This document shows positions 5,951 to 46,971 of a stretch of DNA of 64,000 nt, in pieces (the stretch's first letter is position 1; every line of letters begins with the position of its first letter). The notes beneath the pieces are model-generated. The model saw only the letters and a list, made by a program, of their open reading frames with translations, made no database searches and was not told the origin of the DNA. Both the position numbers and the translations under genes were made by a program. Location: the NCBI GenBank assembly GCA_947630425.1, contig CANRHN010000003.1:2824-66823 (forward strand), written 5' to 3'. Source of the stretch: an uncultured Clostridia bacterium. GTDB taxonomy: Bacteria; Bacillota; Clostridia; Christensenellales; CAG-314.

Positions 5951-6615
5951 GTCGCATCGGGCGACTCCGTGAAAAAAGGGCTTCGAGGTGTCGCATCGGG
6001 TATTCGCCGCAAAACGGGCTTCGCAGTGCCGCTCGCATATTCCCCGAAAAAAGGCTTCGCTCGCACTTCGCGCCCTTTAGTCGAGGGACATATTCGACTT
6101 TGCGCGAAATGCTCGTTGCAGATTATTTTTCGGGAAACATACTCGCGGCTATGGTGAATAAGGTTTGGGTGTTTTTCTTCGTAAAAATTTATTGTGAGGT
6201 GTTCGTTGCAGATTATTTTTCACGGAGTGCCCTCGCTCCCGGGTAAACAAGGTTGGGGTGGACTTCTTCGTAGAGGTGTGTAGTAAGCTTACAGCTGTTC
6301 CAAAAGCCTTCTCTTGAGGACGCAAGAGAAGGGGGACCGCAAAGGGGACCCCAACGAGTTGAGTATAACGAAACTTGTTGGGGAGAGGAACAGCTGACCG
6401 ATAGCGGAACCGACCGAGCCTTGCGCGAGGTTGGTGCTATCGAGGGAAAGCTGTGACGAGCGGTGGATGAGTTTCGACACAAAGGGGGGCTTTCCCTTTG
6501 AGAGGAAAAGTGTCGCTCTGGTATTCGCCCAAACGCAAATTTTTATTTGATATTACCTCTCGCGGAGTGTTCGACCGTCTTGTAACATTCCCGAAGTAAT
6601 AGATTTTTCTCCTAA
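5951..6615. repeat. Mosaic interspersed repeat block RB1 (gene-free)
   Basis: Starts right after the malG-like stop with GTCGCATCGGG (twice). Contains GGTATTCGCCGCAAAACGGGCTTCGC, two copies of the 36-nt GTTGCAGATTATTTTTC... motif (6115-6150, 6205-6240) and a long-form core module. The same pieces recur in the other blocks listed below. Confidence 0.9.
6307..6478 (+). repeat. Core module, long form (HP2, then HP1 arms enclosing a 119-nt insert, then the GGATGAGTTTCGAC tail)
   Basis: CCTTCTCTTG-AGGACG-CAAGAGAAGG hairpin, then GGGACCGC, a 119-nt insert (6341-6459), then GCGGTGGATGAGTTTCGAC. Near-identical copies at 36990-37160 (-) and 45883-46054 (-). Confidence 0.9.
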
Positions 6616-9475: not shown

Positions 9476-12400
9476 TGAGAAAAACAGTTATTGCATTGAT
9501 GCTTGTTTTGCCAATGCTGTTTGTTTTGGTTATTTACGGCTCCTTAAGCGTAGTCAGTATTCGCATACCCGTGTCCGTCAGCGGCATACGTATTCTTGCC
9601 GACAACGAAGTGGTAAAAGACGGGGCGTTTCAGATAGACTTTACCGATCAGCAACAACACCGCATCACAGCCGAAGTAGAACCGGCAACGGCTTCCGAAA
9701 AAGGCTACGTGCTTACAAGCGACAACCCAGACGTGCTTACCGTTGGCGAGGACGGAGTGGTAAAGGCGGTGGGCGAAGGTACGGCAAACGTCACAGCCAC
9801 CAGCAAGGACAAAGGCTTTACCGACGTCATTCACGTAGCCGTCTACGCAGGACTGCCCTTTGACGTGCAATTTTCTTTGAAGGACCTCGAAGGAAACCCC
9901 GTTGCCCTTTCCTACAACAGAAGCACTCAAACCTACACAGCCAAGCAGTTGGAGACGGGCAAGTACGTATACGGCGTGGAAGTAAAGGGCGGCAGCTCCA
10001 AGGAATACAAACTTGCGGCGGATGAAGAAAATTCGGCGTTTGTGGAAAACAACGAAAGTCTGTTTTTGCCTTTCGGAGGAGAGGTCGCGTTGACGCTTTC
10101 CGTCAAAGACGCTTTCGACGTCAACACGGGTATGACCAATCAGACGCTTGAACGCCACATCAAGCTGAGTATGAAAAACGTCCTTTCCGAATCGGAAACG
10201 GGCATTGCCGTAAACGGCGTTGCGGACGGCAACACGGTACTCATGGCAAAGGAATCCAAAAAGACGACCATTTACGTGGAGTGCGAGGGAGAGCCGACAG
10301 TCGTAAGCGAAAACGCTCACGGTGGGTGCATTTCGCACGAGCAAACGAGGGCGTCGGGCAATCATCACGTGGTGGAAGTAACGGTAAACGACGGCTTTGA
10401 AGGTAACGAGTTGGAGGCTACGATCAAAGCGGACAGCAAAACCGCAAATCTCACGTTGAGCTTTGCCGACTTCGATTTCCGTTTGAATTCGGACAACCTT
10501 ATCAAACCCAAACAGGGCGGCTTCGAATCGGTGGTGCTGTTAGACACGCCTACCAGATTTTATGCCGTACCGCTGTTGGACGCACGGGACATCACCTACG
10601 ATTGGAAAGTGATTGGAGCAGATCAGACAGTAACCCCCACTGTCGGAGAAAAATCGGAAGTATGCTCAATCGATGCAAAAACCGAGGGCACATTTACCGT
10701 TTCGGTGCAGCCGATGCGCGGCGAAGAAAAAATCGGCGCAGCCAAGACGATAGAGATACATTGCACGAAGAAGGTCAGTTATGTTCTTGTTACAAACTCC
10801 ACCAAGGTGGACCTTGCCGAACGTTACACGGTAGGCGGACAAAAATACTTGCCTTCCGGCTCGTTGGGGGACAACGACAGCTATGAAATACTGAACGTGG
10901 GCATGATGCAGGGCGAAAGCAGCGCCTTCTCTAACGATTGGACACGTATCAAGGTAAAGTCGTCCAACCCCGACATTGCCGATGTGGAAACACGCGAAGG
11001 CAGAGCGTATCTTGTCCCGAAAGGCACGGGTGCGGTAACGATAACCGCCGAGTGGGAGTACAACGAGTGGTTCACTTCTTCCAACGTTGTGGGCAAGCTG
11101 GCTCTCAACGTGGTAAAGGACGCGGTGGAAGTGAACAACTACCCCGACCTCGTAAAGGCGATGGACGCAAAGCTCAAGGTGGTGCTGACCAAAAACATAA
11201 TGCTCGGCACAAATGCCGACGGTAGTCAGATGTCGAAAGCGGCGCGTCAGCAGATTATAGACGAACACCAATATCAATCCACCTACAACACGGTGTTTTA
11301 CGAAACAGACGACAAGCACGACATTAGCAATACCTTTGTAAAGTACGCGTTGGAGTTTACCAACGACGTTTACGGCAACGGATTTAACCTTGACGCGGAG
11401 TACTTTACCAACGAAATGGACGACTCGGGCAAGCCGGAATTATTTACCGGACCATTGGTGTTTGTGGAGTACAAGGGTATTGCCAAGGTGGCGGGACAGG
11501 ACAACATTGCTTACCTCATTCGCACCGACGGGGTAAAGCTGTACGGAGTAAATTTGCTTGGCTGCAGCGACGACTCCCTCAACGACAACGAGGGCAATTA
11601 CGAACTCAACCACCTGAACAACGTGGGTACAACCTTGGAAATCAACGCCGATTGCCAAATTGTCAATTGCCGTATTCGCAACGGACGCAACGTTGTGAGA
11701 GTTTACGGCGGCAACCGTGACGGCAACGCATACCAAGACAAACACTACTTTGTCACGTCCATTCCATCGACGAATTTGAGCGACGAAGAAAGGATTTTGG
11801 TCAACATAGAGGGCTGCATAATCACGCAGGGACGCGAGTTCCTTGTCAAAGTGGGCACAAACAAGGCGTTGCAGGCAGGCTCTTCTCTCGGGCAAGAACC
11901 CGTTTTGAGAGACGCCAACGGTGTTGCATACAAAGAAAACTCCTTCAATGGCAGATCGACCAGCAACAACTACGTAATTGCCGACCAAGACTTTTTCTAC
12001 AATCGTTACGTAATGACGGATCTGACACTTAAAAACAGCGTTTTGGAAACGAGCGGTCTGTTCTGCGTGGGCGTGGAAAGCAATTTCTCGGGGGCGTTGC
12101 TCTACAGCGGTGCGTCCAAATTGACGGGCGATGGGGCAAGTTACGCGCAATTGACCACAACCTGGCGTTCATCGGGAGCAACTTCCTTTGCCTCGATGTT
12201 GAGGCTTGCGGGAGACGTGCGCCTGTACGATTGGAAGGATGTAAGCCAAGTAGACAGCAGCACCCTTATCGAAGCAACGGAAGGCAGCCAATTGAGCGCG
12301 ATGATGAAATTCGACGTTTCCGCAATGCTGCAGGAGGTGGACGGTAAACCCGACTACGCCAATCTGCTGTACAAGGAAAACAACAAAACCTTTGTGCATG

Positions 12401-12799: not shown

Positions 12800-13651
12800 A
12801 TGATCAAGACATCTATAAGATTTTTTGAAGACATTCCGGTAAGAGCCGTCTGGAATAACGAGGATTCCAAATGGTGGTTTTGCGCCGTTGATATAGCCGA
12901 GGCACTCACTAAGAGTAAAAACCCGCGCTCCTATTGGAACACGTTGAAGCGTCGCCACAATGAGTTGTCGACAATTTGTCGACAACTCAAACTTGTTGCG
13001 CGGGACGGCAAAGCATATCTTACCGACGTGGTGGAAGCAGGCGGCGTCAACACGGTTGTTGCGCTCATTCCCGTAAAAAATCGTGAAAATTTTGTACGTT
13101 GGCTCTCGGGTATAGGCAGAACTATTGATGAAAAAAGCAAGCAAAAAGCATACGAGCTGTTTGAAAGCGGCTTGATCGGAGAAATAGAGGTTGGAACGGT
13201 CAGGGGCTTGCAGCAGATTCACGGCTACATTTTCGGCGGATTATTTGACTTTGCGGGGCAAATCCGCGGTTTGAACATTGCCAAAGGCGGCTTTGCGTTT
13301 GCACCGGCAATGTACTTAAAAGAAAATCTTGCGCTCATCGAGAAGATGCCCGAAAACACCCTTGACGATATTGTCAAAAAATATGTTGAAATGAACATTG
13401 CGCACCCGTTTATGGAAGGTAACGGGCGCAGTATGCGTATTTGGCTCGACCTTATTTTGAAAAAGAATTTACACAAATGCGTCGATTGGAGCAAAATCGA
13501 CAAGCGCGCCTATCTTGACGCTATGCGAAAAAGCCCCGTTGACACGTCGGACATTTTTCGGCTCATCGACAACGCGCTGACAGAGAAAATCGACGACCGC
13601 GAATTGTTTATGAAAGGCATTGATTACTCCTATTACTACGAGGAAGAATAA
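12800..13651 (+). CDS. Fic-family protein: Bro-N-like N-terminal domain fused to a class III (NmFic-like) Fic AMP-transferase domain
   Basis: Fic motif [12 protein letters not shown]. The core ([38 protein letters not shown] ... [10 protein letters not shown]) closely resembles Neisseria NmFic as I remember it. A C-terminal SYYYEE sits in the position of the inhibitory SxxxE(G/N) helix. The N-terminal ~115 aa ([28 protein letters not shown]) looks like a Bro-N/antirepressor-type domain. Confidence 0.8.
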
Positions 13652-27204: not shown

Positions 27205-27412
27205 TTGGGTATTCGCCGCAAAACGGGCTTCGCTTCGGGCTACGCCCTCGTTGCAGATTGTTTTGCGTGCGAACACCCGCGCTCCCTGTTGAACAAGGTT
27301 GGGGGTGTACCTCTTCGTAGGAGTGTGTAGCAAGCTTACAGCTGTTCCAAAAGCCTTCTCTTGAGGACGCAAGAGAAGGGGGACCGCCGAACGGCGGTGG
27401 ATGAGTTTCGAC
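27205..27412 (+). repeat. Mosaic repeat block RB3 (composite unit ending in a short core module)
   Basis: GGTATTCGCCGCAAAACGGGCTTCGC, GTTGCAGATTGTTTTGCGTGCGAACACCCGCGCTCC (27251-27286), TGTTGAACAAGGTTGGGGGTGT, CTTCGTAGGAGTGTGTAGCAAGCTTACAGCTGTTCCAAAAG, then the core module at 27354-27412. Confidence 0.9.
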
Positions 27413-33637: not shown

Positions 33638-33696
33638 CCTTCTCTTGAGGACGCAAGAGAAGGGGGACCGCCGAACGGCGGTGGATGAGTTTCGAC
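33638..33696 (+). repeat. Core module, short form
   Basis: CCTTCTCTTGAGGACGCAAGAGAAGGGGGACCGCCGAACGGCGGTGGATGAGTTTCGAC. Confidence 0.92.
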
Positions 33697-33794: not shown

Positions 33795-33853
33795 CCTTCT
33801 CTTGAGGACGCAAGAGAAGGGGGACCGCCGAACGGCGGTGGATGAGTTTCGAC
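33795..33853 (+). repeat. Core module, short form
   Basis: Identical 59-nt sequence to 33638-33696. Confidence 0.92.
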
Positions 33854-34137: not shown

Positions 34138-34193
34138 CCTTCTCTTGAGGACGCAAGAGAAGGGGGACCGCGACGCGGTGGATGAGTTTCGAC
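34138..34193 (+). repeat. Core module, short form with variant HP1 (ACCGC-GAC-GCGGT)
   Basis: CCTTCTCTTGAGGACGCAAGAGAAGGGGGACCGCGACGCGGTGGATGAGTTTCGAC. Confidence 0.9.
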
Positions 34194-36904: not shown

Positions 36905-37285
36905 CCCAAACCGCAAAAAAAACACCCTCGACCTTGTTCAACAGGGAGCGAGGGTGTTCGCATACAAAACGATCCGGAATATCGGGCATGTCGAAACTCA
37001 TCCACCGCTCGTCACAGCTTTCCCTCGATAGCACCAACCTCGCACAAGGCTCGGTCGGTTCCGCTATCGGTCGGCTGTTCCTCTCCCCAACAAGTTTCGT
37101 TATACTCAACTCGTTGGGGTCCCCGTTATAGCCCCCTTCTCTTGCGTCCTCAAGAGAAGGCTTGGTATGCAGTTGCAGAATATGTTAAGAAACAAGCTGT
37201 CAAAACAAACTCGGTATTTTCGCGCGCGGAGACGGACGTTTCGTCCGTAGTAGCGGGAAAAGCGAAAATTCCGTCTGCAATCGCG
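36905..37285 (-). repeat. Mosaic repeat block RB5
   Basis: Hairpin AACACCCTCG...CGAGGGTGTT with an A8/T8 run, a long-form core module at 36990-37160 (-), and GACGAAACGTCCGTCTCCGCGCGCGAAAATACCGAG in reverse orientation. Confidence 0.9.
36990..37160 (-). repeat. Core module, long form
   Basis: GTCGAAACTCATCCACCGC, then the insert, then CCTTCTCTTGCGTCCTCAAGAGAAGG read on the + strand. Confidence 0.9.
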
Positions 37286-41771: not shown

Positions 41772-41863
41772 ATTGACAAACAGCCACGAATAAACTATAC
41801 TAAAAAATGAAGGTAAAAACGTAATTCGTACCACTTGACGACAAGATTTGATTGGCTTTGGTA

Positions 41864-41919
41864 GTCGAAACTCATCCACCGCGTCGCGGTCCCCCTTCCC
41901 TTGCATCCTCAAGGGAAGG
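41864..41919 (-). repeat. Core module, short variant (HP2 CCTTCCCTTG/CAAGGGAAGG)
   Basis: GTCGAAACTCATCCACCGCGTCGCGGTCCCCCTTCCCTTGCATCCTCAAGGGAAGG, followed by CTAAGTGCGGCGAA. Confidence 0.9.
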
Positions 41920-42056
41920 CTAAGTGCGGCGAATGGTACTTGTCTCTTACATCGTTAAGGGTGGCATCAAAAGCCACAATGTGTTCTATGGAACAAGTGT
42001 CGATGGTTTGAGATAAGTTCGTTCGTAAGGAGCAAGTCGGCAACTGTTCAATCAAG

Positions 42057-42113
42057 CCTTCTCTTGAGGACGCAAGAGAAGGTGTCACCGTCAGGTGACG
42101 AATGAGTTTCGAC
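42057..42113 (+). repeat. Core module, short form with replaced HP1 (GTCACC-GTCA-GGTGAC)
   Basis: CCTTCTCTTGAGGACGCAAGAGAAGGTGTCACCGTCAGGTGACGAATGAGTTTCGAC. Ends 26 nt before the DUF559 ATG. Confidence 0.88.
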
Positions 42114-42139
42114 CTACAAAACCAACAAAATTCAGCACC

Positions 42140-42505
42140 ATGATTGTTCGTCATAGCAACAGGCTCACAAAAATTTCTCAAACATTGCGAAGGAACATGA
42201 CCAAAGAAGAAAAACATCTTTGGTACGATTACTTCAAGTTGTTGAACATCACAGTACACAGACAATATGTGATAGAAGATTTTGTGGCGGATTTTTACAT
42301 TCCGTGTGCCAATATTGTGGTGGAGTTGGACGGTAGCCAACACTACGAACCGAGTATGGTCTTGCAAGACGCCATTCGTACAGAACGTATGGAACGGTAT
42401 GGATTGACGGTTGTGCGCTTTCCAAACAATGCGATAAATTATAATTTTCGCAATGTGTGCGAATATTTGAACACATTGATAGCAAAGAGCAATCGGCTAC
42501 AATAG
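42140..42505 (+). CDS. DUF559 (Vsr-like) endonuclease-domain protein
   Basis: 121 aa. LRRNMTKEEKHLW...FVADFYIPCANIVVELDGSQH...DAIRTERMERYGLTVVRFPNN fits the DUF559 pattern. The ORF-track GTG at 42095 lies inside the repeat module, so ATG at 42140 is preferred. No obvious SD. Lower G+C than neighbours by eye. Confidence 0.8.
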   Translation: MIVRHSNRLTKISQTLRRNMTKEEKHLWYDYFKLLNITVHRQYVIEDFVADFYIPCANIVVELDGSQHYEPSMVLQDAIRTERMERYGLTVVRFPNNAINYNFRNVCEYLNTLIAKSNRLQ

Positions 42506-42560
42506 TCGAAACTCATCCACCGCGTCGCGGTCCCCCTTCCCTTGCGTCGTCAAGGGAAGG
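42505..42560 (-). repeat. Core module, short variant; first base is the last base of the DUF559 stop codon
   Basis: TA-GTCGAAACTCATCCACCGCGTCGCGGTCCCCCTTCCCTTGCGTCGTCAAGGGAAGG, then CTAAGTGCGGCGAA. Confidence 0.9.
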
Positions 42561-42650
42561 CTAAGTGCGGCGAACGATTTTCTTTCCTTCGTCGTAGCTT
42601 TTACAGTGTAGCACCGAACTGTAGTTACACGCTTGGAACTGCTACCATTC

Positions 42651-42739
42651 AGCTGTTCCTCTCCCCAACAAGTTTCGTTATACTCAACTCGTTGGGGTCC
42701 CCTTTGCGGTCCCCCTTCCCTTGCGTCGTCAAGGGAAGG
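42651..42739 (-). repeat. Truncated long-form module with variant HP2
   Basis: AGCTGTTCCTCTCCCCAACAAGTTTCGTTATACTCAACTCGTTGGGGTCCCCTTTGCGGTCCCCCTTCCCTTGCGTCGTCAAGGGAAGG, then CTAAGTGCGGCGAA. Confidence 0.88.
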
Positions 42740-42813
42740 CTAAGTGCGGCGAACGGCAGTAAACCTCGCTTGCAATTTTCAACATCACGCAAATACTCAT
42801 TTGGGAGAAAAAT

Positions 42814-44250
42814 ATGTCAGACAAACAGTTTGTAAAAGAAATTGCCGATATAAACACGGATTTTACGCAGTGGTACACCGACGTGGTACTCAAAACGCAG
42901 CTTGTGGACTACGGTCCCGTCAAGGGCACAATGGTAATTCGTCCCTACGGCTACGCCATTTGGGAGAACATTCAGCGCGAGTTGGACGCTCGTTTCAAGG
43001 CGACGGGACACCAAAACGCCTACTTCCCCATGCTCATTCCCATGAGCTTGCTCAACAAGGAAGCGGAACACGTCGAGGGCTTTGCGCCCGAGGTGGCGGT
43101 TGTAAACGTTGCCGGCGGCGAACAGCTTGCCGAACCCGTTGTTATTCGCCCCACCAGCGAAACCATCATTTGCAGCATGTACTCCAAGTGGATCAACAGT
43201 TACCGCGATTTGCCCCTCAAGCTCAATCAATGGGCAAACGTGGTGCGTTGGGAAAAGACCACCCGTCCGTTTTTGCGCACGTCGGAGTTTTTGTGGCAGG
43301 AAGGTCACACGATCCACGCCACGCGCGAGGAATCATTGAAGGAAACCATCGACATGCTGCACCTTTACCAAGATTTTGCGCGTGAAGTGCTTGCCATGCC
43401 CACGTTTATCGGACAAAAGAGCGAAAAGGAAAAGTTTGCCGGAGCCGAGGCGACCTTTGGTATGGAAGCCATGATGCTGGACGGCAAGAGCTTGCAAGCG
43501 GGCACAACTCACCATTTCGGGCAAAAGTTCAGCCGCGCCTACGACATACAATTCCTCGACAAGGACGGCACGCACAAGTACGTGTGGCAATCAAGCTGGG
43601 GCGTAAGCACGCGTCTCATCGGCGGACTTATCATGGCGCACGGCGACCAACGCGGACTTGTTTTGCCGCCGAAGGTCGCGCCCGTTCAGGTTGTCGTCAT
43701 TCCCGTTGCCGCGCACAAGGAAGGCGTGCTTGACAAGGCGGCGGAAGTTGCCGAGCAACTCAAAGCAAAGGGCTTGCGCGTGGAATTGGACGTTCGCGAT
43801 CAGTCCCCGGGGTGGAAGTTCAACGAATGGGAAATGAAAGGCGTGCCTCTCCGCGTGGAGATTGGTCCGCGCGACATAGAAAACGGCGTTGCCACCTGCT
43901 CTCGCCGCGACACCTTGGAAAAGTTTACCTTGCCGCTTGACGGAATTGCCGACAGCGCGGTCGCGCTCCTCGACGAGATACAAACCCACATGTACAACAA
44001 ATCGCTTGCTTTCCGCGACAGTCACGTCAAGCTTGCGCACAACATGGACGAGCTGGGCGACATACTCGACTCCAAGTGCTTTGCAAAGGTGGTGTGGGAC
44101 AAAGACCCCGCTTGCGAAGCGGCTTTCAAGGAGCGTTTTCAGGCGACAGTGCGCGTGATGTTGGATGAACCGCCCTTCCAAAATGTTTGCACCTGCTGCG
44201 GAAAAAGCGGCAATGATTTGACCGTTGCGATAGTGGCAAGAGCGTATTAG
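42814..44250 (+). CDS. proS: Proline--tRNA ligase (archaeal/eukaryote-like short form)
   Basis: 478 aa. FTQWYTDVVLKTQLVDYGPVKGTMVIRPYGYAIWE, class II motifs and the C-terminal zinc-binding-domain-like tail are typical of type II ProRS. Confidence 0.93.
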   Translation: MSDKQFVKEIADINTDFTQWYTDVVLKTQLVDYGPVKGTMVIRPYGYAIWENIQRELDARFKATGHQNAYFPMLIPMSLLNKEAEHVEGFAPEVAVVNVAGGEQLAEPVVIRPTSETIICSMYSKWINSYRDLPLKLNQWANVVRWEKTTRPFLRTSEFLWQEGHTIHATREESLKETIDMLHLYQDFAREVLAMPTFIGQKSEKEKFAGAEATFGMEAMMLDGKSLQAGTTHHFGQKFSRAYDIQFLDKDGTHKYVWQSSWGVSTRLIGGLIMAHGDQRGLVLPPKVAPVQVVVIPVAAHKEGVLDKAAEVAEQLKAKGLRVELDVRDQSPGWKFNEWEMKGVPLRVEIGPRDIENGVATCSRRDTLEKFTLPLDGIADSAVALLDEIQTHMYNKSLAFRDSHVKLAHNMDELGDILDSKCFAKVVWDKDPACEAAFKERFQATVRVMLDEPPFQNVCTCCGKSGNDLTVAIVARAY

Positions 44251-44343: not shown

Positions 44344-44754
44344 TTACTTGATTTTGCTCAAAGCGTTTTGAACAGCAGCAATGATACGAGCGGAAGATTG
44401 TGTAGCGCCTGTAATGTGAGGTACGCCGTCACCAACAGTTTGGGTGGTTTCATTTACCGTTACCGTCCAACCTTTGACAGTGTCAACTTTTTGTCCTACA
44501 AGTTTTTCACTGATCCAATTTTTATAAGCTGCTTCCGCTTTTGTGAAACCAAGGTCGCCGTCGTGTTCTCCCTCTTTCCAACCGGTAGAAGTACGAACCC
44601 AGCCCGTATCCTCATCGGTGTACAACTTAACAGCCTTGATAACGCCGTTCTTTACGGTTACGTCAACCTTTGTTCCATAGTGAGTAGTCCATGCTGTATA
44701 ATCGACAGAACCGGTAACCGTTTGTTCTTTGCCGCAAGCAGCGAGAACGCACAC
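44344..44754 (-). CDS. FMN-binding-domain lipoprotein paralog with lost canonical start (possible pseudogene)
   Basis: C-terminal ITGATQSSARIIAAVQNALSKI is an FMN_bind signature. The signal-peptide codons continue upstream to 44799 but are preceded by an in-frame TAA where the paralog has ATGAAAAAA. The only in-frame start is GTG at 44754 (MCVLAACGK). Confidence 0.6.
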   Translation of the reverse strand: MCVLAACGKEQTVTGSVDYTAWTTHYGTKVDVTVKNGVIKAVKLYTDEDTGWVRTSTGWKEGEHDGDLGFTKAEAAYKNWISEKLVGQKVDTVKGWTVTVNETTQTVGDGVPHITGATQSSARIIAAVQNALSKIK

Positions 44755-45072: not shown

Positions 45073-45591
45073 ATGAAAAAAGTACTTGTTATTGCACTCG
45101 CAGTAATCATGGTAGTAGCGGCTGTTTCTGTTCTTGCTGCTTGCGGCAAAGAGCAAACGGTTGAGGGTGAATATACCTACAAATACAGTGACACTCTTTC
45201 TTATGGTGTCAAAGTAAAAGTTACCGTGAAGGGCGATGTCATCAAAAAGGTGGAAGTCACTTCCACAGACACAGCTACATACACCAATCTTTCTCCAAAT
45301 TGGACGACAGACTACACAGTTGGCGGAGAGAACACAGAAGGCAGACAAGCCTGGATTGACAAGCACGAAGACTTCATTGCAAGCTTTGCCGGAATGTCGG
45401 TTTCAGATATCAACAAAATCAAAGTTGCTACAGACACCGAAACCAACCCTGACGCTCACACCGTTCAAGGACAACCCAAAGCCGGCGGTATTACAGTTGT
45501 TCCCGACGGACTCCAAGTTGTTGCGAAAGCTACGCAATCCAGCGGACGTTTGATCCTTGCTGTTCAAAACGCTCTTAGCAAACTCAAATAA
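45073..45591 (+). CDS. FMN-binding-domain lipoprotein (motif AKAT in place of S/T-GAT)
   Basis: 172 aa. MKKVLVIALAVIMVVAAVSVLAAC lipoprotein signal. C-terminal VVAKATQSSGRLILAVQNALSKLK. AAGGAG RBS. Confidence 0.8.
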   Translation: MKKVLVIALAVIMVVAAVSVLAACGKEQTVEGEYTYKYSDTLSYGVKVKVTVKGDVIKKVEVTSTDTATYTNLSPNWTTDYTVGGENTEGRQAWIDKHEDFIASFAGMSVSDINKIKVATDTETNPDAHTVQGQPKAGGITVVPDGLQVVAKATQSSGRLILAVQNALSKLK

Positions 45592-45642: not shown

Positions 45643-46971
45643 GTATATTCCGACCAAAGTGGAGCGAGGGTACTCCGTGAAAAATAATCTGCAAGACTTT
45701 TAGAACAACCGTTAGTTTGCTATCAGGAAATTATAGCTTCCCCACGAGTGTGGGCGTGGTGCGTAAAGCCAATCACCACAGTGTGGTGTTGGTAGCAGCC
45801 ACGCGCTCGCCGCTACTGACTTACCGCGGCGAGCGGTCCTTGTTGTCCCCGAAGGGGAAAAGGGACGAAATATTTACTTTGTGTCGAAACTCATCCACCG
45901 CTCGTCACAGCATTCCCTCGATAGCACCAACCTCGCGCAAGGCTCGGTCGGTTCCGCTATCGGTCGGCTGTTCCTCTCCCCAACAAGCTTCGTTATACTC
46001 AACTCGTTGGGGTCCCCTTTGCGGTCCCCCTTCTCTTGCGTCCTCAAGAGAAGGCTTTGTATGCGGCTTTTAGCTTGCTACACACAAAATAGTTGTGCCC
46101 ACTCGAAAGGGAAAGCTTATATGGTTATACGAAAATAAACATCGTCCCTATCGTCTGCTTTCGCAGACACTTCCCCACTCGTGGGGAAGCTACGCCTCTG
46201 TGACATACCTTGTTTCAAAACAAAATGTTTTAATTAAAGTTTCAACATTGTTATACTTTGCGCAACAAAGCAGATTATATCCGTGGCACAAACACAGAGC
46301 GAGTGTGTTCACCGAAAAATAATCTGCAGAGGTGCAATTAAGCATATATTCTTTTTTTGGATAAGTGGGAGCAAGTGCGTTGCGCAACAAAACAATCTGC
46401 AACTAACTACACTTTTCAACACAGCCGCGAGTGTGTTTCCCGAAAAATAATCTGCAGCGAGTACTTCATAATAAAAAACACACCAACCTTGTTTAACACA
46501 GGAGTGCGGGTGTTCGCATGCAAAACAATCTGCAACGAGGGCGTAGCCCGAAGCGAAGCCCGTTTTGCAGCGAATACCCAAGCGACATGCGAAGCCCTTT
46601 TTTCGGGGAATATACGAGCGGCACTGCGAAGCCATTTTGCGGCGATTGCTTGAGTTAAAGTTTTTTACGCTCTTGAAACTTGCCGTTACGAAGAAAAACA
46701 CCCCCGACCTTATTTAACAGGGAGCGAGGGTGTTCGCACGCAAAACAATCTGCAACGCACTACTACGAAGAAGTACACCCCAACCTTATTTACCCGGACG
46801 CGAGGGTACTCCGTGAAAAATAATCTGCAACGAACGCCTCACAATAAATTTTTACGAAGAAAAACACCCCCGACCTTATTTAACAGGGAGCGAGGGTGTT
46901 CGCACGCAAAACAATCTGCAACGAGGGCGTAGCCCGAAGCGAAGCCGTTTTGCGGCGAATACCCGATGCGA
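45643..46971. repeat. Mosaic repeat block RB8 (1.3 kb, gene-free)
   Basis: TCCGACCAAA at 45649-45658. Long-form core module at 45883-46054 (-). Eight copies of the 36-nt motif in reverse orientation (45661-45695, 46297-46330, 46374-46402, 46422-46458, 46501-46536, 46721-46756, 46796-46831, 46887-46922). Ends with CCCGATGCGAC abutting the mscS stop. Confidence 0.9.
45883..46054 (-). repeat. Core module, long form
   Basis: GTCGAAACTCATCCACCGCTCGTCACAGC...GGGGTCCCCTTTGCGGTCCCCCTTCTCTTGCGTCCTCAAGAGAAGG. Confidence 0.9.

Follow-up and report, generated by a model that had tools for sequence, protein, structure and literature searches.

A DUF559 nuclease gene between inverted triplex-type modules in a Clostridial proS leader: a candidate selfish cassette

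The element considered here is a DUF559 gene bracketed by inverted copies of a structured repeat, found upstream of proS in a 64,000-nt stretch of DNA from an uncultured Clostridia bacterium (contig CANRHN010000003.1; the whole stretch is called the window below). One of its closest described counterparts, the homing endonuclease I-Bth0305I, is larger, has an additional region for DNA binding, and resides in a group I intron of a phage gene, homing into the allele that lacks the intron. In the RAYT/REP-REPIN systems the repetitive extragenic palindromic (REP) sequences occur as singlets, inverted doublets and clusters (PMC3116915, PMC3337134, PMC2817692). The BoxC/PIT/TM repeats, whose first descriptions date from the 1990s (Hoyne and Maher 2000; Holder et al. 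2015), form an intrastrand triplex by circular dichroism and nuclear magnetic resonance, as seen in vitro with E. coli TM oligonucleotides; they are of class II, come as inverted pairs of a type A and a type B, are present in more than 260 genomes, and mark unstable, rearrangement-prone loci. According to the same authors, no remnants of a transposase or integrase have ever been found near BoxC/TM, and ycjD/DUF559 goes unmentioned (PMC4666352). The later work on intrastrand triplexes brings in no protein partner and, among the matches listed, none of the literature that mentions DUF559 is about repeats. Finally, the CGTC-tagged REPs of alpha-proteobacteria, which include Neisseria dRS3 and Rickettsia RPE-4/6, are mostly head-to-head dimers for which a dedicated transposase is reported to be lacking (PMC3733652).

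With RAYT/REPIN the Clostridial arrangement has in common a low- or single-copy nuclease-type gene lying between inverted copies of a short, structured and genome-dispersed repeat, the sequence of which varies by lineage and tracks the associated gene. In contrast to RAYTs, however, the enzyme is a Vsr-fold PD-(D/E)xK protein of ~120 aa and not an HUH Y1 (IS200/IS605-like) transposase, and the stop codon, often together with the Shine-Dalgarno sequence (SD), lies inside the modules; REPs have a GTAG head, whereas the module here combines two hairpins with a head that forms a mirror repeat (triplex). The arrangement also differs from insertion sequences and miniature inverted-repeat transposable elements (MITEs) that use a DDE, HUH or serine/tyrosine transposase, none of which was found among the large ORFs (open reading frames) of the window. 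Like BoxC/PIT/TM, the modules are intergenic, interspersed and found in inverted pairs of two sub-types, and they follow the same block order of pyrimidine arm, purine arm and reverse-Hoogsteen block, with C-G-G triads alongside T-A-A or T-A-T. They depart from BoxC/TM in loop 2, which measures 1-6 nt under the ITxF definition, whereas in Clostridia it is itself a hairpin of 12-25 nt (hairpin B); the long form seen in the window adds an insert of ~110 nt, for a loop 2 of ~125 nt. Hairpin B and its flanks in turn have a consensus (..C-CGTC-A[stem-loop-stem]T-GCCA-CC..) like that of the CGTC-tagged REPs (Di Nocera et al. 2013), with which they share the CGTC tag, a stem starting with A/T, a loop of 3-5 nt and a CCA tail. 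The CGTC REPs are, however, stand-alone palindromes from Proteobacteria and a few other phyla, not from Firmicutes and not within a larger triplex module, and in the window hairpin B is preceded by CATCC, so that the resemblance may serve as a lead rather than as a test. With the Vsr-like (EDxHD) homing endonucleases of the I-Bth0305I type the gene shares its catalytic fold and, apparently, a selfish lifestyle (PMC3239194), but it encodes a bare 121-aa domain and lies in intergenic DNA between structured repeats.

The unit is a cassette of ~0.5 kb, conserved across Clostridia, with the gene central in a head-to-head pair of modules; in the window it forms part of a ~1-kb insert in the proS leader. 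A first-pass annotation, made from the letters of the window, had proposed that the gene is either an autonomous member or the cargo of the repeat family. Its association with the repeats held, three checks coming out in favour; that the nuclease cuts or moves the modules is a step that we still infer. On balance we lean, though not strongly, towards a compact selfish cassette, comparable to RAYT/REPIN, whose nuclease would act on its own modules: the association is observed directly, and the catalysis is the conjectural part.

The nuclease gene and its flanks in the proS leader

The DUF559 gene occupies positions 42140-42505 on the forward (+) strand. Its ORF of 121 aa, already picked out in the first pass, is intact and was recovered both by an ORF scan and by a match to Pfam PF04480 (E 1.2e-22; 80.3 bits against a cut-off of 20.6; 104 of 109 profile positions covered), the only other Pfam match being a weak one to MTES_1575. 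No second DUF559 copy was found by tblastn in the window, and the gene is the sole member of the family there. An AlphaFold2 model of the protein (pLDDT 78.5, pTM 0.71) adopts a Vsr-like fold. Its top Foldseek matches are 3HRL (TMt 0.79), a DUF559 structure from N. gonorrhoeae that is also matched by sequence in the Protein Data Bank (E 2e-6), I-Bth0305I 3R3P (0.78) and Vsr 1VSR and 1CW0; of I-Bth0305I only the catalytic domain is matched, at E 2e-4 with TM 0.64-0.78, and further matches include PvuRts1I and AbaSI, which are specific for 5-hydroxymethylcytosine, and mitoribosomal proteins of the RAP type. The residues D51, E62, D64, Q67 and H68, invariant across 28 homologues, are all present in the window ORF, as is the conserved acidic/His motif D..ELDG.QH. 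Judged by its predicted fold and active site, this is an intact Vsr-fold PD-(D/E)xK nuclease gene that looks functional despite the missing SD. It belongs to a very large family, of which E. coli YcjD is a member: one word-indexed search gave 2766 proteins at E <= 1e-5, and genomes chosen as species representatives contain more than 590 loci.

Two modules flank the gene, and the heads of both face it. The left one, M2 (42054-42113, - strand; fold z -4.6), is made up of hairpin A (42057-42082), hairpin B (GTCACC-GTCA-GGTGAC, 42084-42099) and head (42100-42113), and ends 26 nt before the ATG. The right one, M3 (42505-42574, + strand), runs from its head (42505-42518) through hairpin B (42519-42531) and hairpin A (42535-42560) to a tail that extends up to 42574. 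As had been noticed, GAATGAGTTTCGAC closes the upstream module at 42113 and GTCGAAACTCATCC opens the downstream one at 42505, such that both point at the gene, and the first G of M3 is also the last base of the TAG stop codon (42503-42505). The imperfect inverted pair described earlier was reproduced, 42054-42113 and 42505-42564 being identical at 46 of 61 positions (a repeat finder returned 27-nt arms at 74%), and so was a direct repeat of ~70 nt, its copies at 41862-41933 and 42503-42574 agreeing at 97% over 72 nt and its 3' half recurring at 42706-42755 (100% over 50 nt). A 46-nt core pattern of this direct repeat has three matches, against none in 100 shuffles. The impression that the gene is low in G+C was also correct: the ORF has 40.2% (47.5% at third codon positions, GC3), compared with 55.1% for proS (GC3 68.9%) and 51.5% for the window. 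Likewise, no SD precedes its ATG.

Two further modules lie in the same spacer. M1 (41864-41933, + strand; fold z -4.95, with two hairpins and a free head) is a short form with a variant hairpin, consisting of the head GTCGAAACTCATCC (41864-41877), hairpin B ACCGC-GTC-GCGGT (41878-41890), hairpin A CCTTCCCTTG/CAAGGGAAGG (41894-41919) and a tail up to 41933; together, M1 and M2 make a tail-to-tail composite. M4 (42649-42755, + strand) is headless, and comprises the 3' part of a long-form insert (42649-42705) followed by GCGGT, hairpin A (42714-42739) and the tail. It matches 6305-6397 (93 nt, 97%) and also the long forms at 37074-37162 and 45967-46056. The promoter-like site of proS, TTGACA-17-TATACT (41773-41801, + strand; 11/12 in a promoter scan), precedes the modules, and proS itself (42814-44250, + strand), encoding a class II prolyl-tRNA synthetase (Pfam tRNA-synt_2b, HGTP_anticodon and ProRS-C_1), is the host gene of the leader insert. 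The label 'ECF-S' previously attached to the upstream 236-aa membrane protein could not be confirmed, that protein having no Pfam match.

An upstream ORF of 13 codons (42102-42143, + strand) starts within the head of the left module, its ATG following AGGTGA, and its TGA overlaps the DUF559 ATG (ATGA), an overlap which could permit translational coupling without an SD. A reading of the head as the start of an N-terminal extension or upstream ORF was set aside: the frame relation differs in the related contig L002 and is not conserved. Hairpin A was also considered as an intrinsic terminator; in the window it is not scored as such, because no T-run follows it.

A cassette at unrelated intergenic sites across Clostridia

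In three contigs ~87% identical to the window (L002-L004) the order of left module, gene and right module is kept beside proS, and M2 is conserved throughout L001-L004. M1, however, is absent from L002-L004, where a full tail-to-tail composite lies instead between the gene and proS, and modules must therefore turn over fast. More distant relatives supplied the empty sites that the first-pass annotation had suggested looking for: in five contigs with an adjacent membrane protein 74-79% identical in amino acids and with proS synteny (L086-L090), the spacer between the membrane gene and proS measures 38-117 nt and holds neither gene nor modules, and no module was found anywhere in the 12-20 kb of these contigs. 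These short spacers keep the TTGACA-N17-TATACT promoter, which in L087 and L089 stands directly ahead of proS. We therefore conclude that in the window ~1 kb has been inserted downstream of the promoter (41773-41801) and ahead of the ribosome-binding site of proS, and that this insertion is polymorphic among relatives. No clean junction could be read, because the empty sites come only from these distant relatives. The window's own module type also occurs at an independent locus, in a metagenome-assembled genome (MAG) from rabbit gut (L005). There, a DUF559 gene 68% identical to that of the window adjoins galK and is enclosed by a near-perfect inverted repeat of ~90 nt, whose ends facing the gene read ...GATGAGTTTCGAC on one side and GTCGAAACTCATC... 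on the other.

The association extends well beyond this clade. One scan of a collection of species representatives, which does not include the species of the window (best match 66%), gave a sample of 80 DUF559 loci of 44-66% identity from different Clostridia species. When the 150 nt upstream of each gene were aligned to the reverse complement of the 150 nt downstream, a pair score at or above the threshold of 30 was reached at 70% of 77 loci, compared with 0.16% of 1225 shifted controls, and other DUF559 genes are thus flanked by modules as well. In the 120 nt on either side of the gene, perfect C/T-rich hairpins reach 6.2 per kb, compared with 0.13 per kb elsewhere, and their distances from the gene are stereotyped; gene-flanking pairs identified with a module hidden Markov model (nhmmer) were head-to-head in 47 cases and in other orientations in 4. 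Inverted module pairs of 50-60 nt form the terminal inverted repeats of the cassette. Its immediate neighbour genes are almost never common to two loci (131 clusters from 145 ORFs), which indicates independent insertions. In one MAG, three paralogous cassettes are alike from a promoter-like motif through left module, ORF and right module, and then diverge. These results show that what is seen in the window, a gene with a module on each side, exemplifies a conserved and widespread cassette, which inserts as a unit at unrelated intergenic sites.

At the Clostridia loci the upstream head carries the SD (GGAGGGAT), which the heads in the window lack. The downstream head is read in frame as E/Q-S-L, and the ORF often stops within the loop of hairpin A; because its 3' end reads into the module, DUF559 proteins have variable tails, such as ESLRQSATDTSL and QSLSQLR. 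The upstream module, which is non-coding, co-diverges with the protein (Mantel rho 0.31; 0 of 2000 permutations).

Two peculiarities of sub-clades were seen in the same sample. In L008, L013, L014, L017, L022, L027, L032 and L060 the start codon (~9992-10001) is ACG or ATA, not ATG; the ORFs of this sub-clade are intact, and such copies either have very weak starts, as might suit a toxic nuclease, or are translationally silent. L044 has an in-frame stop. In one sub-clade a promoter-like sequence of ~28 nt, TGGCATCYAGATTATACAGTCTTTATA (TTGGCA-N17-TTATAT), flanks the cassette as a direct repeat, with one copy ~60-110 nt upstream and the other 5-40 nt downstream (L015, L033, L041, L044, L048, L059 and L074). 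Another module pair begins after it in L041. The motif might represent a site for tandem cassettes, a promoter that the element carries, or a target.

Triplex-type grammar, gene-less copies and relatives in other phyla

What the first pass missed is that the modules are more than hairpins, and bear the mirror-repeat signature of intrastrand triplex elements. The consensus of 84 flanking modules reads AATCCCTCCGTCA-[hairpin B]-TGCCACCTCCCTTTAGGCAAGGGAGGCTT, its head being ATCCCTCCGTC where the window has GTCGAAACTCATCC. Hairpin A pairs a pyrimidine arm with a purine arm and shows compensatory changes at three of eight pairs; hairpin B is variable in sequence. The head covaries with the purine arm in a parallel (mirror) register, ATCCCTCC occurring with AAGGGAGG, ATCCCCCA with AAGGGGGC and ATCCTCCC with AAGGAGGG. 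Each position has the triple (C,G,C) or (T,A,T), rarely (A,A,T), and two or three positions show three-way covariation. All 84 modules satisfy this mirror rule at 6 or more of 7 positions (head-shuffle z 12.9), and there are 24 doubly changed cells, compared with 5.7 +/- 1.8 in shuffles (0 of 500 reach 24) and 0-1 in slid registers, although kinship among the sequences makes these shuffle statistics overstate independence. A motif-free scan of all loci favours parallel over antiparallel pairing by 317 to 96. In the window the consensus module scores 7/7 (GGATGAG against GAGAAGG), and the gene-flanking copies 6/7.

The modules thus carry the sequence grammar of class II triplex elements, and on this basis the head, on the strand where it is purine-rich, is predicted to be able to form a class II intrastrand triplex by folding onto hairpin A. 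Since both A and T occur opposite A-T, the purine motif (G.G-C, A.A-T, T.A-T) fits better; a pyrimidine-motif triplex (C+.G-C) is less likely as the main form, both for the A opposite A-T and by the pH argument (PMC4666352). Two other descriptions of the head were rejected. It is not a direct repeat of the pyrimidine arm, the T moving in opposite ways in the two blocks (ATCCTCCC with CCCTCCTT), and an antiparallel (Watson-Crick) match to the purine arm is weaker, with at most 0.58 of positions compared with 0.72 in parallel.

The window contains 12 modules in 64 kb, four of which are those of the proS spacer. The head GTCGAAACTCATC occurs 14 times at no more than 2 mismatches, where 1.66 would be expected, and 11 of these occurrences, at no more than 1 mismatch, belong to modules. 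In the short form (~58 nt) the head is followed by a small hairpin B (ACCGC..GCGGT) and then by hairpin A, of 10 bp, CCTTCTCTTG-N6-CAAGAGAAGG; long forms (~172 nt) are short modules with a structured insert of ~110 nt in the loop of hairpin B, between ACCGC and GCGGT. As single-stranded DNA, modules are predicted to fold into two hairpins and a free head (z -4.2 to -5.0). The remaining short copies lie at 27354-27412, 33638-33696, 33795-33853 and 34138-34193, all on the - strand, and the long ones at 6307-6478 (-), 34008-~34130 (-, truncated), 36990-37160 (+) and 45883-46054 (+); four form a tandem run at 33.6-34.2 kb, and all eight are intergenic. A covariance model (R1) built only from the DUF559 flanks of other species, the window's clade excluded, was run unfiltered over the whole window. 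Its top four hits were the modules of this locus: M2 (E 0.007, the best in the window), M4 (0.023, 42697-42742), M3 (0.031, 42516-42563) and M1 (0.035, 41875-41922). Indeed, 11 of its 12 hits were members of the repeat family. The same model found 297 copies in the 83 loci and no match in the empty-site relatives. The repeats of the window are therefore gene-less relatives of the cassette ends, present as short forms, long forms and tandem copies.

The insert of the long form, seen at 36990-37160, 45883-46054, 6307-6478 and 42649-42705 with a related one at ~1210-1370 of L005, may be a second, nested element. Some modules also share extended flanks, such as CGAAGGGGAAAAGGGACGAAATATTTA ahead of two heads, which suggests larger composite units. 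Rfam has no family for the modules of the window or of five other loci; a match to CRISPR-DR36 was dismissed as chance (E 3.9), and a hammerhead or CRISPR reading of GTCGAAAC was discarded by eye, there being no CUGAUGA core and no spacer array. A metagenome scan for the window-type head returned no modules, only 13 single chance matches in coding DNA.

Gene-less copies are not confined to the window. Among the loci there are 24 head-to-head doublets without a gene, with spacers of 2-105 nt (for example L036 16651-16747, ...GGAGGGATA-cg-TATCCCCCAG...), and these retain the left-type/right-type asymmetry found around the gene. Some genomes carry module arrays (L075, L076), and at several loci, including one of the three paralogues, a second module sits in the hairpin A loop of a first, in the same orientation. 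Doublets, arrays and nesting are marks of a proliferating element, and the nested inserts in hairpin-A loops hint at a structured target. Nesting was seen upstream of the gene in L074 (9900-10000), L028 (5790-5885) and L080 (7170-7253), and downstream in L007, L021, L023 and L080, where it yields composite protein tails such as ...DTSRESPSQLR.

Outside Clostridia, DUF559 loci of 27-36% identity were collected by tblastn on chromids and plasmids. Triplex-type modules stand beside several of these genes too, obeying the same mirror rule with quite different sequences (CCCCCTCT/GGGGGAGA, CCCCACCCC/GGGGAGGGG and CCCCTCATCC/GGGGAGAAGG), and a count over 20 loci including viral contigs gives 2.3 modules per kb close to the gene and 0.22 per kb elsewhere. 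On a Sphingomonas plasmid (L113, 1483-1893) and a Deinococcus plasmid (L111, 1471-1824) the gene has been inserted into a conserved operon, between sufB and sufC and between paaD and paaZ, respectively, and has modules on both sides. In Sinorhizobium it adjoins a RIME-like repeat, in Shinella a module strikingly like that of the window (CCTTCTCCCC..GGGGAGAAGG-hairpin-GATGAGGGGG), and in Photobacterium it is followed by tandem units.

In E. coli K-12, the stop codon of ycjD (L091, NC_000913.3 1351041-1351840) lies in a degenerate pyrimidine/purine hairpin and a BoxC repeat follows ~165 nt downstream, a proximity for which we estimate a chance of ~0.2%, given 23 copies in 4.6 Mb (PMC4666352). 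The order fabI-BoxC-ycjD-sapF is contiguous in 62% of 5426 E. coli genomes, and in the remaining 38% fabI synteny breaks ~40 nt before BoxC. We considered this break as a clean empty site and rejected it, the O157 example holding a different island. At the same locus, a perfect 17-bp hairpin covers the SD and GTG start of ycjD, and 3' of the gene there is a duplicated fragment of its 3' end, then the BoxC/TM repeat.

The wider surroundings of the window cassette are core chromosome, with SecA, DnaE, WhiA, MurB and proS. No transposase, integrase or HUH protein was found among the window's 39 large ORFs or adjoining cassettes, no intron or intein context was found for the DUF559 gene (Rfam negative), and a scan for tRNAs found none. 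Other features include a SAM riboswitch (RF00162, 13799-13902, + strand, 69.9 bits) and, among housekeeping genes, a Fic/DOC domain protein with a Bro-N N-terminal domain (12800-13648, + strand). Two paralogous, divergent genes for small lipoprotein-like proteins (44344-44754, - strand, and 45073-45591, + strand) share the ends ACGKEQTV... and ATQSS.R.I.AVQNALSK.K; the former has a weak FMN_bind match, and a long-form module lies just downstream of the latter.

Competing explanations and their consequences

If the cassette is selfish, its nuclease might recognise and nick the cassette's modules in their folded state, or else the loops of hairpin A in target sites, and host replication or repair could then copy cassettes, doublets and single modules into new intergenic sites, an outcome that would be functionally analogous to that of RAYT transposases with REP/REPIN repeats. 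Besides the kinship among sequences already mentioned, several observations weigh against this account. The Vsr fold is known for nicking and not for strand transfer, and to our knowledge it has no transposase chemistry. No target-site duplication is evident at the window insert or among the three paralogues, and ~30% of the Clostridia loci lack a clear module pair. Many genomes have a cassette with few or no solo modules within 20 kb, such that the presence of the gene alone does not yield proliferation. None of the other modules in the window is arranged head-to-head, all being in tandem or tail-to-tail, and the gene copy there may be poorly expressed, because it has no SD and its flanks are only 75% alike. 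In Deinococcus the module heads face outward. The triplex itself is deduced from covariation together with the literature on the E. coli repeats, and its loop 2 is here a whole hairpin.

Could the modules simply be cis elements of a domesticated gene? They would then represent an SD leader (GGAGGGAT) and a 3' structure that holds the stop codon and stabilises or terminates the transcript, and the protein would serve the host, for example in processing or repair of triplex or hairpin DNA, or in RNA binding like the Vsr-like RAP/FASTK domains. Solo modules and doublets would have arisen by decay of cassettes and not by copying that the nuclease drives. The upstream head does double as SD, its complement downstream is read in frame as E/Q-S-L with the stop in the hairpin-A loop, many loci hold just the two flanking modules, RNA-binding RAP-type proteins are also among the Foldseek matches, and RAYTs themselves are argued to be domesticated (PMC5581495). 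We nevertheless regard domestication as unlikely: it sits poorly with tandem arrays and dozens of solo copies (L075, L076 and the window), with modules nested in hairpin loops, with their occurrence in both orientations and with a mirror rule that is kept in gene-less copies. Moreover, the purine-motif triplex works in DNA and not in RNA (PMC4666352), and the heads in the window have no SD.

Alternatively, the doublet could be a MITE moved by some other, unlinked enzyme, with DUF559 a cargo or hitch-hiker (for example a free-standing homing nuclease or an addiction gene) lodged between its heads. Such a passenger role would fit with the gene-less doublets, whose spacers go down to 2 nt, with the gene of L075, which has its own promoter and is not tightly bracketed, and with the lack of any known transposase chemistry for the Vsr fold. 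We think it quite improbable, however, as no transposase, integrase or HUH gene is found in the 64-kb window or adjoining cassettes, the same gene family is central in lineages with quite different module sequences, including those of other phyla, protein and module co-diverge, and a mobility gene for the triplex repeats of E. coli was looked for in published work without success (PMC4666352). The window is rich in modules, with four of the 12 in the one spacer, and a small, horizontally acquired gene might thus have landed among them by chance; the same architecture at L005 and in ~50 other species, against strong controls, refutes this and leaves it a negligible probability.

Our preferred reading thus remains that of a selfish cassette with a nuclease acting on its own ends. 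It is possible, although we would stop short of calling it probable, that DUF559 is more generally the missing partner of bacterial intrastrand-triplex repeats, namely the Clostridial modules, the rhizobial RIME-like repeats and perhaps BoxC/PIT/TM with YcjD. This would define a new class of mobile element, in which a Vsr-fold nuclease recognises ends made of triplex plus hairpin and spreads cassettes, doublets and modules across many phyla. DUF559 is, in this respect, the first candidate partner enzyme for triplex-forming bacterial repeats. If correct, the large DUF559 family and the BoxC/PIT/TM repeats would be joined, in a way that is testable with YcjD and BoxC in E. coli, and the RAYT/REPIN type of partnership between gene and repeat would have a second, structurally unrelated representative; triplex DNA, moreover, might then have a naturally occurring protein that recognises it. 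In annotation, many odd C-terminal tails of DUF559 proteins are explained as module-encoded, and the presence of DUF559 genes inside conserved operons is accounted for as well.

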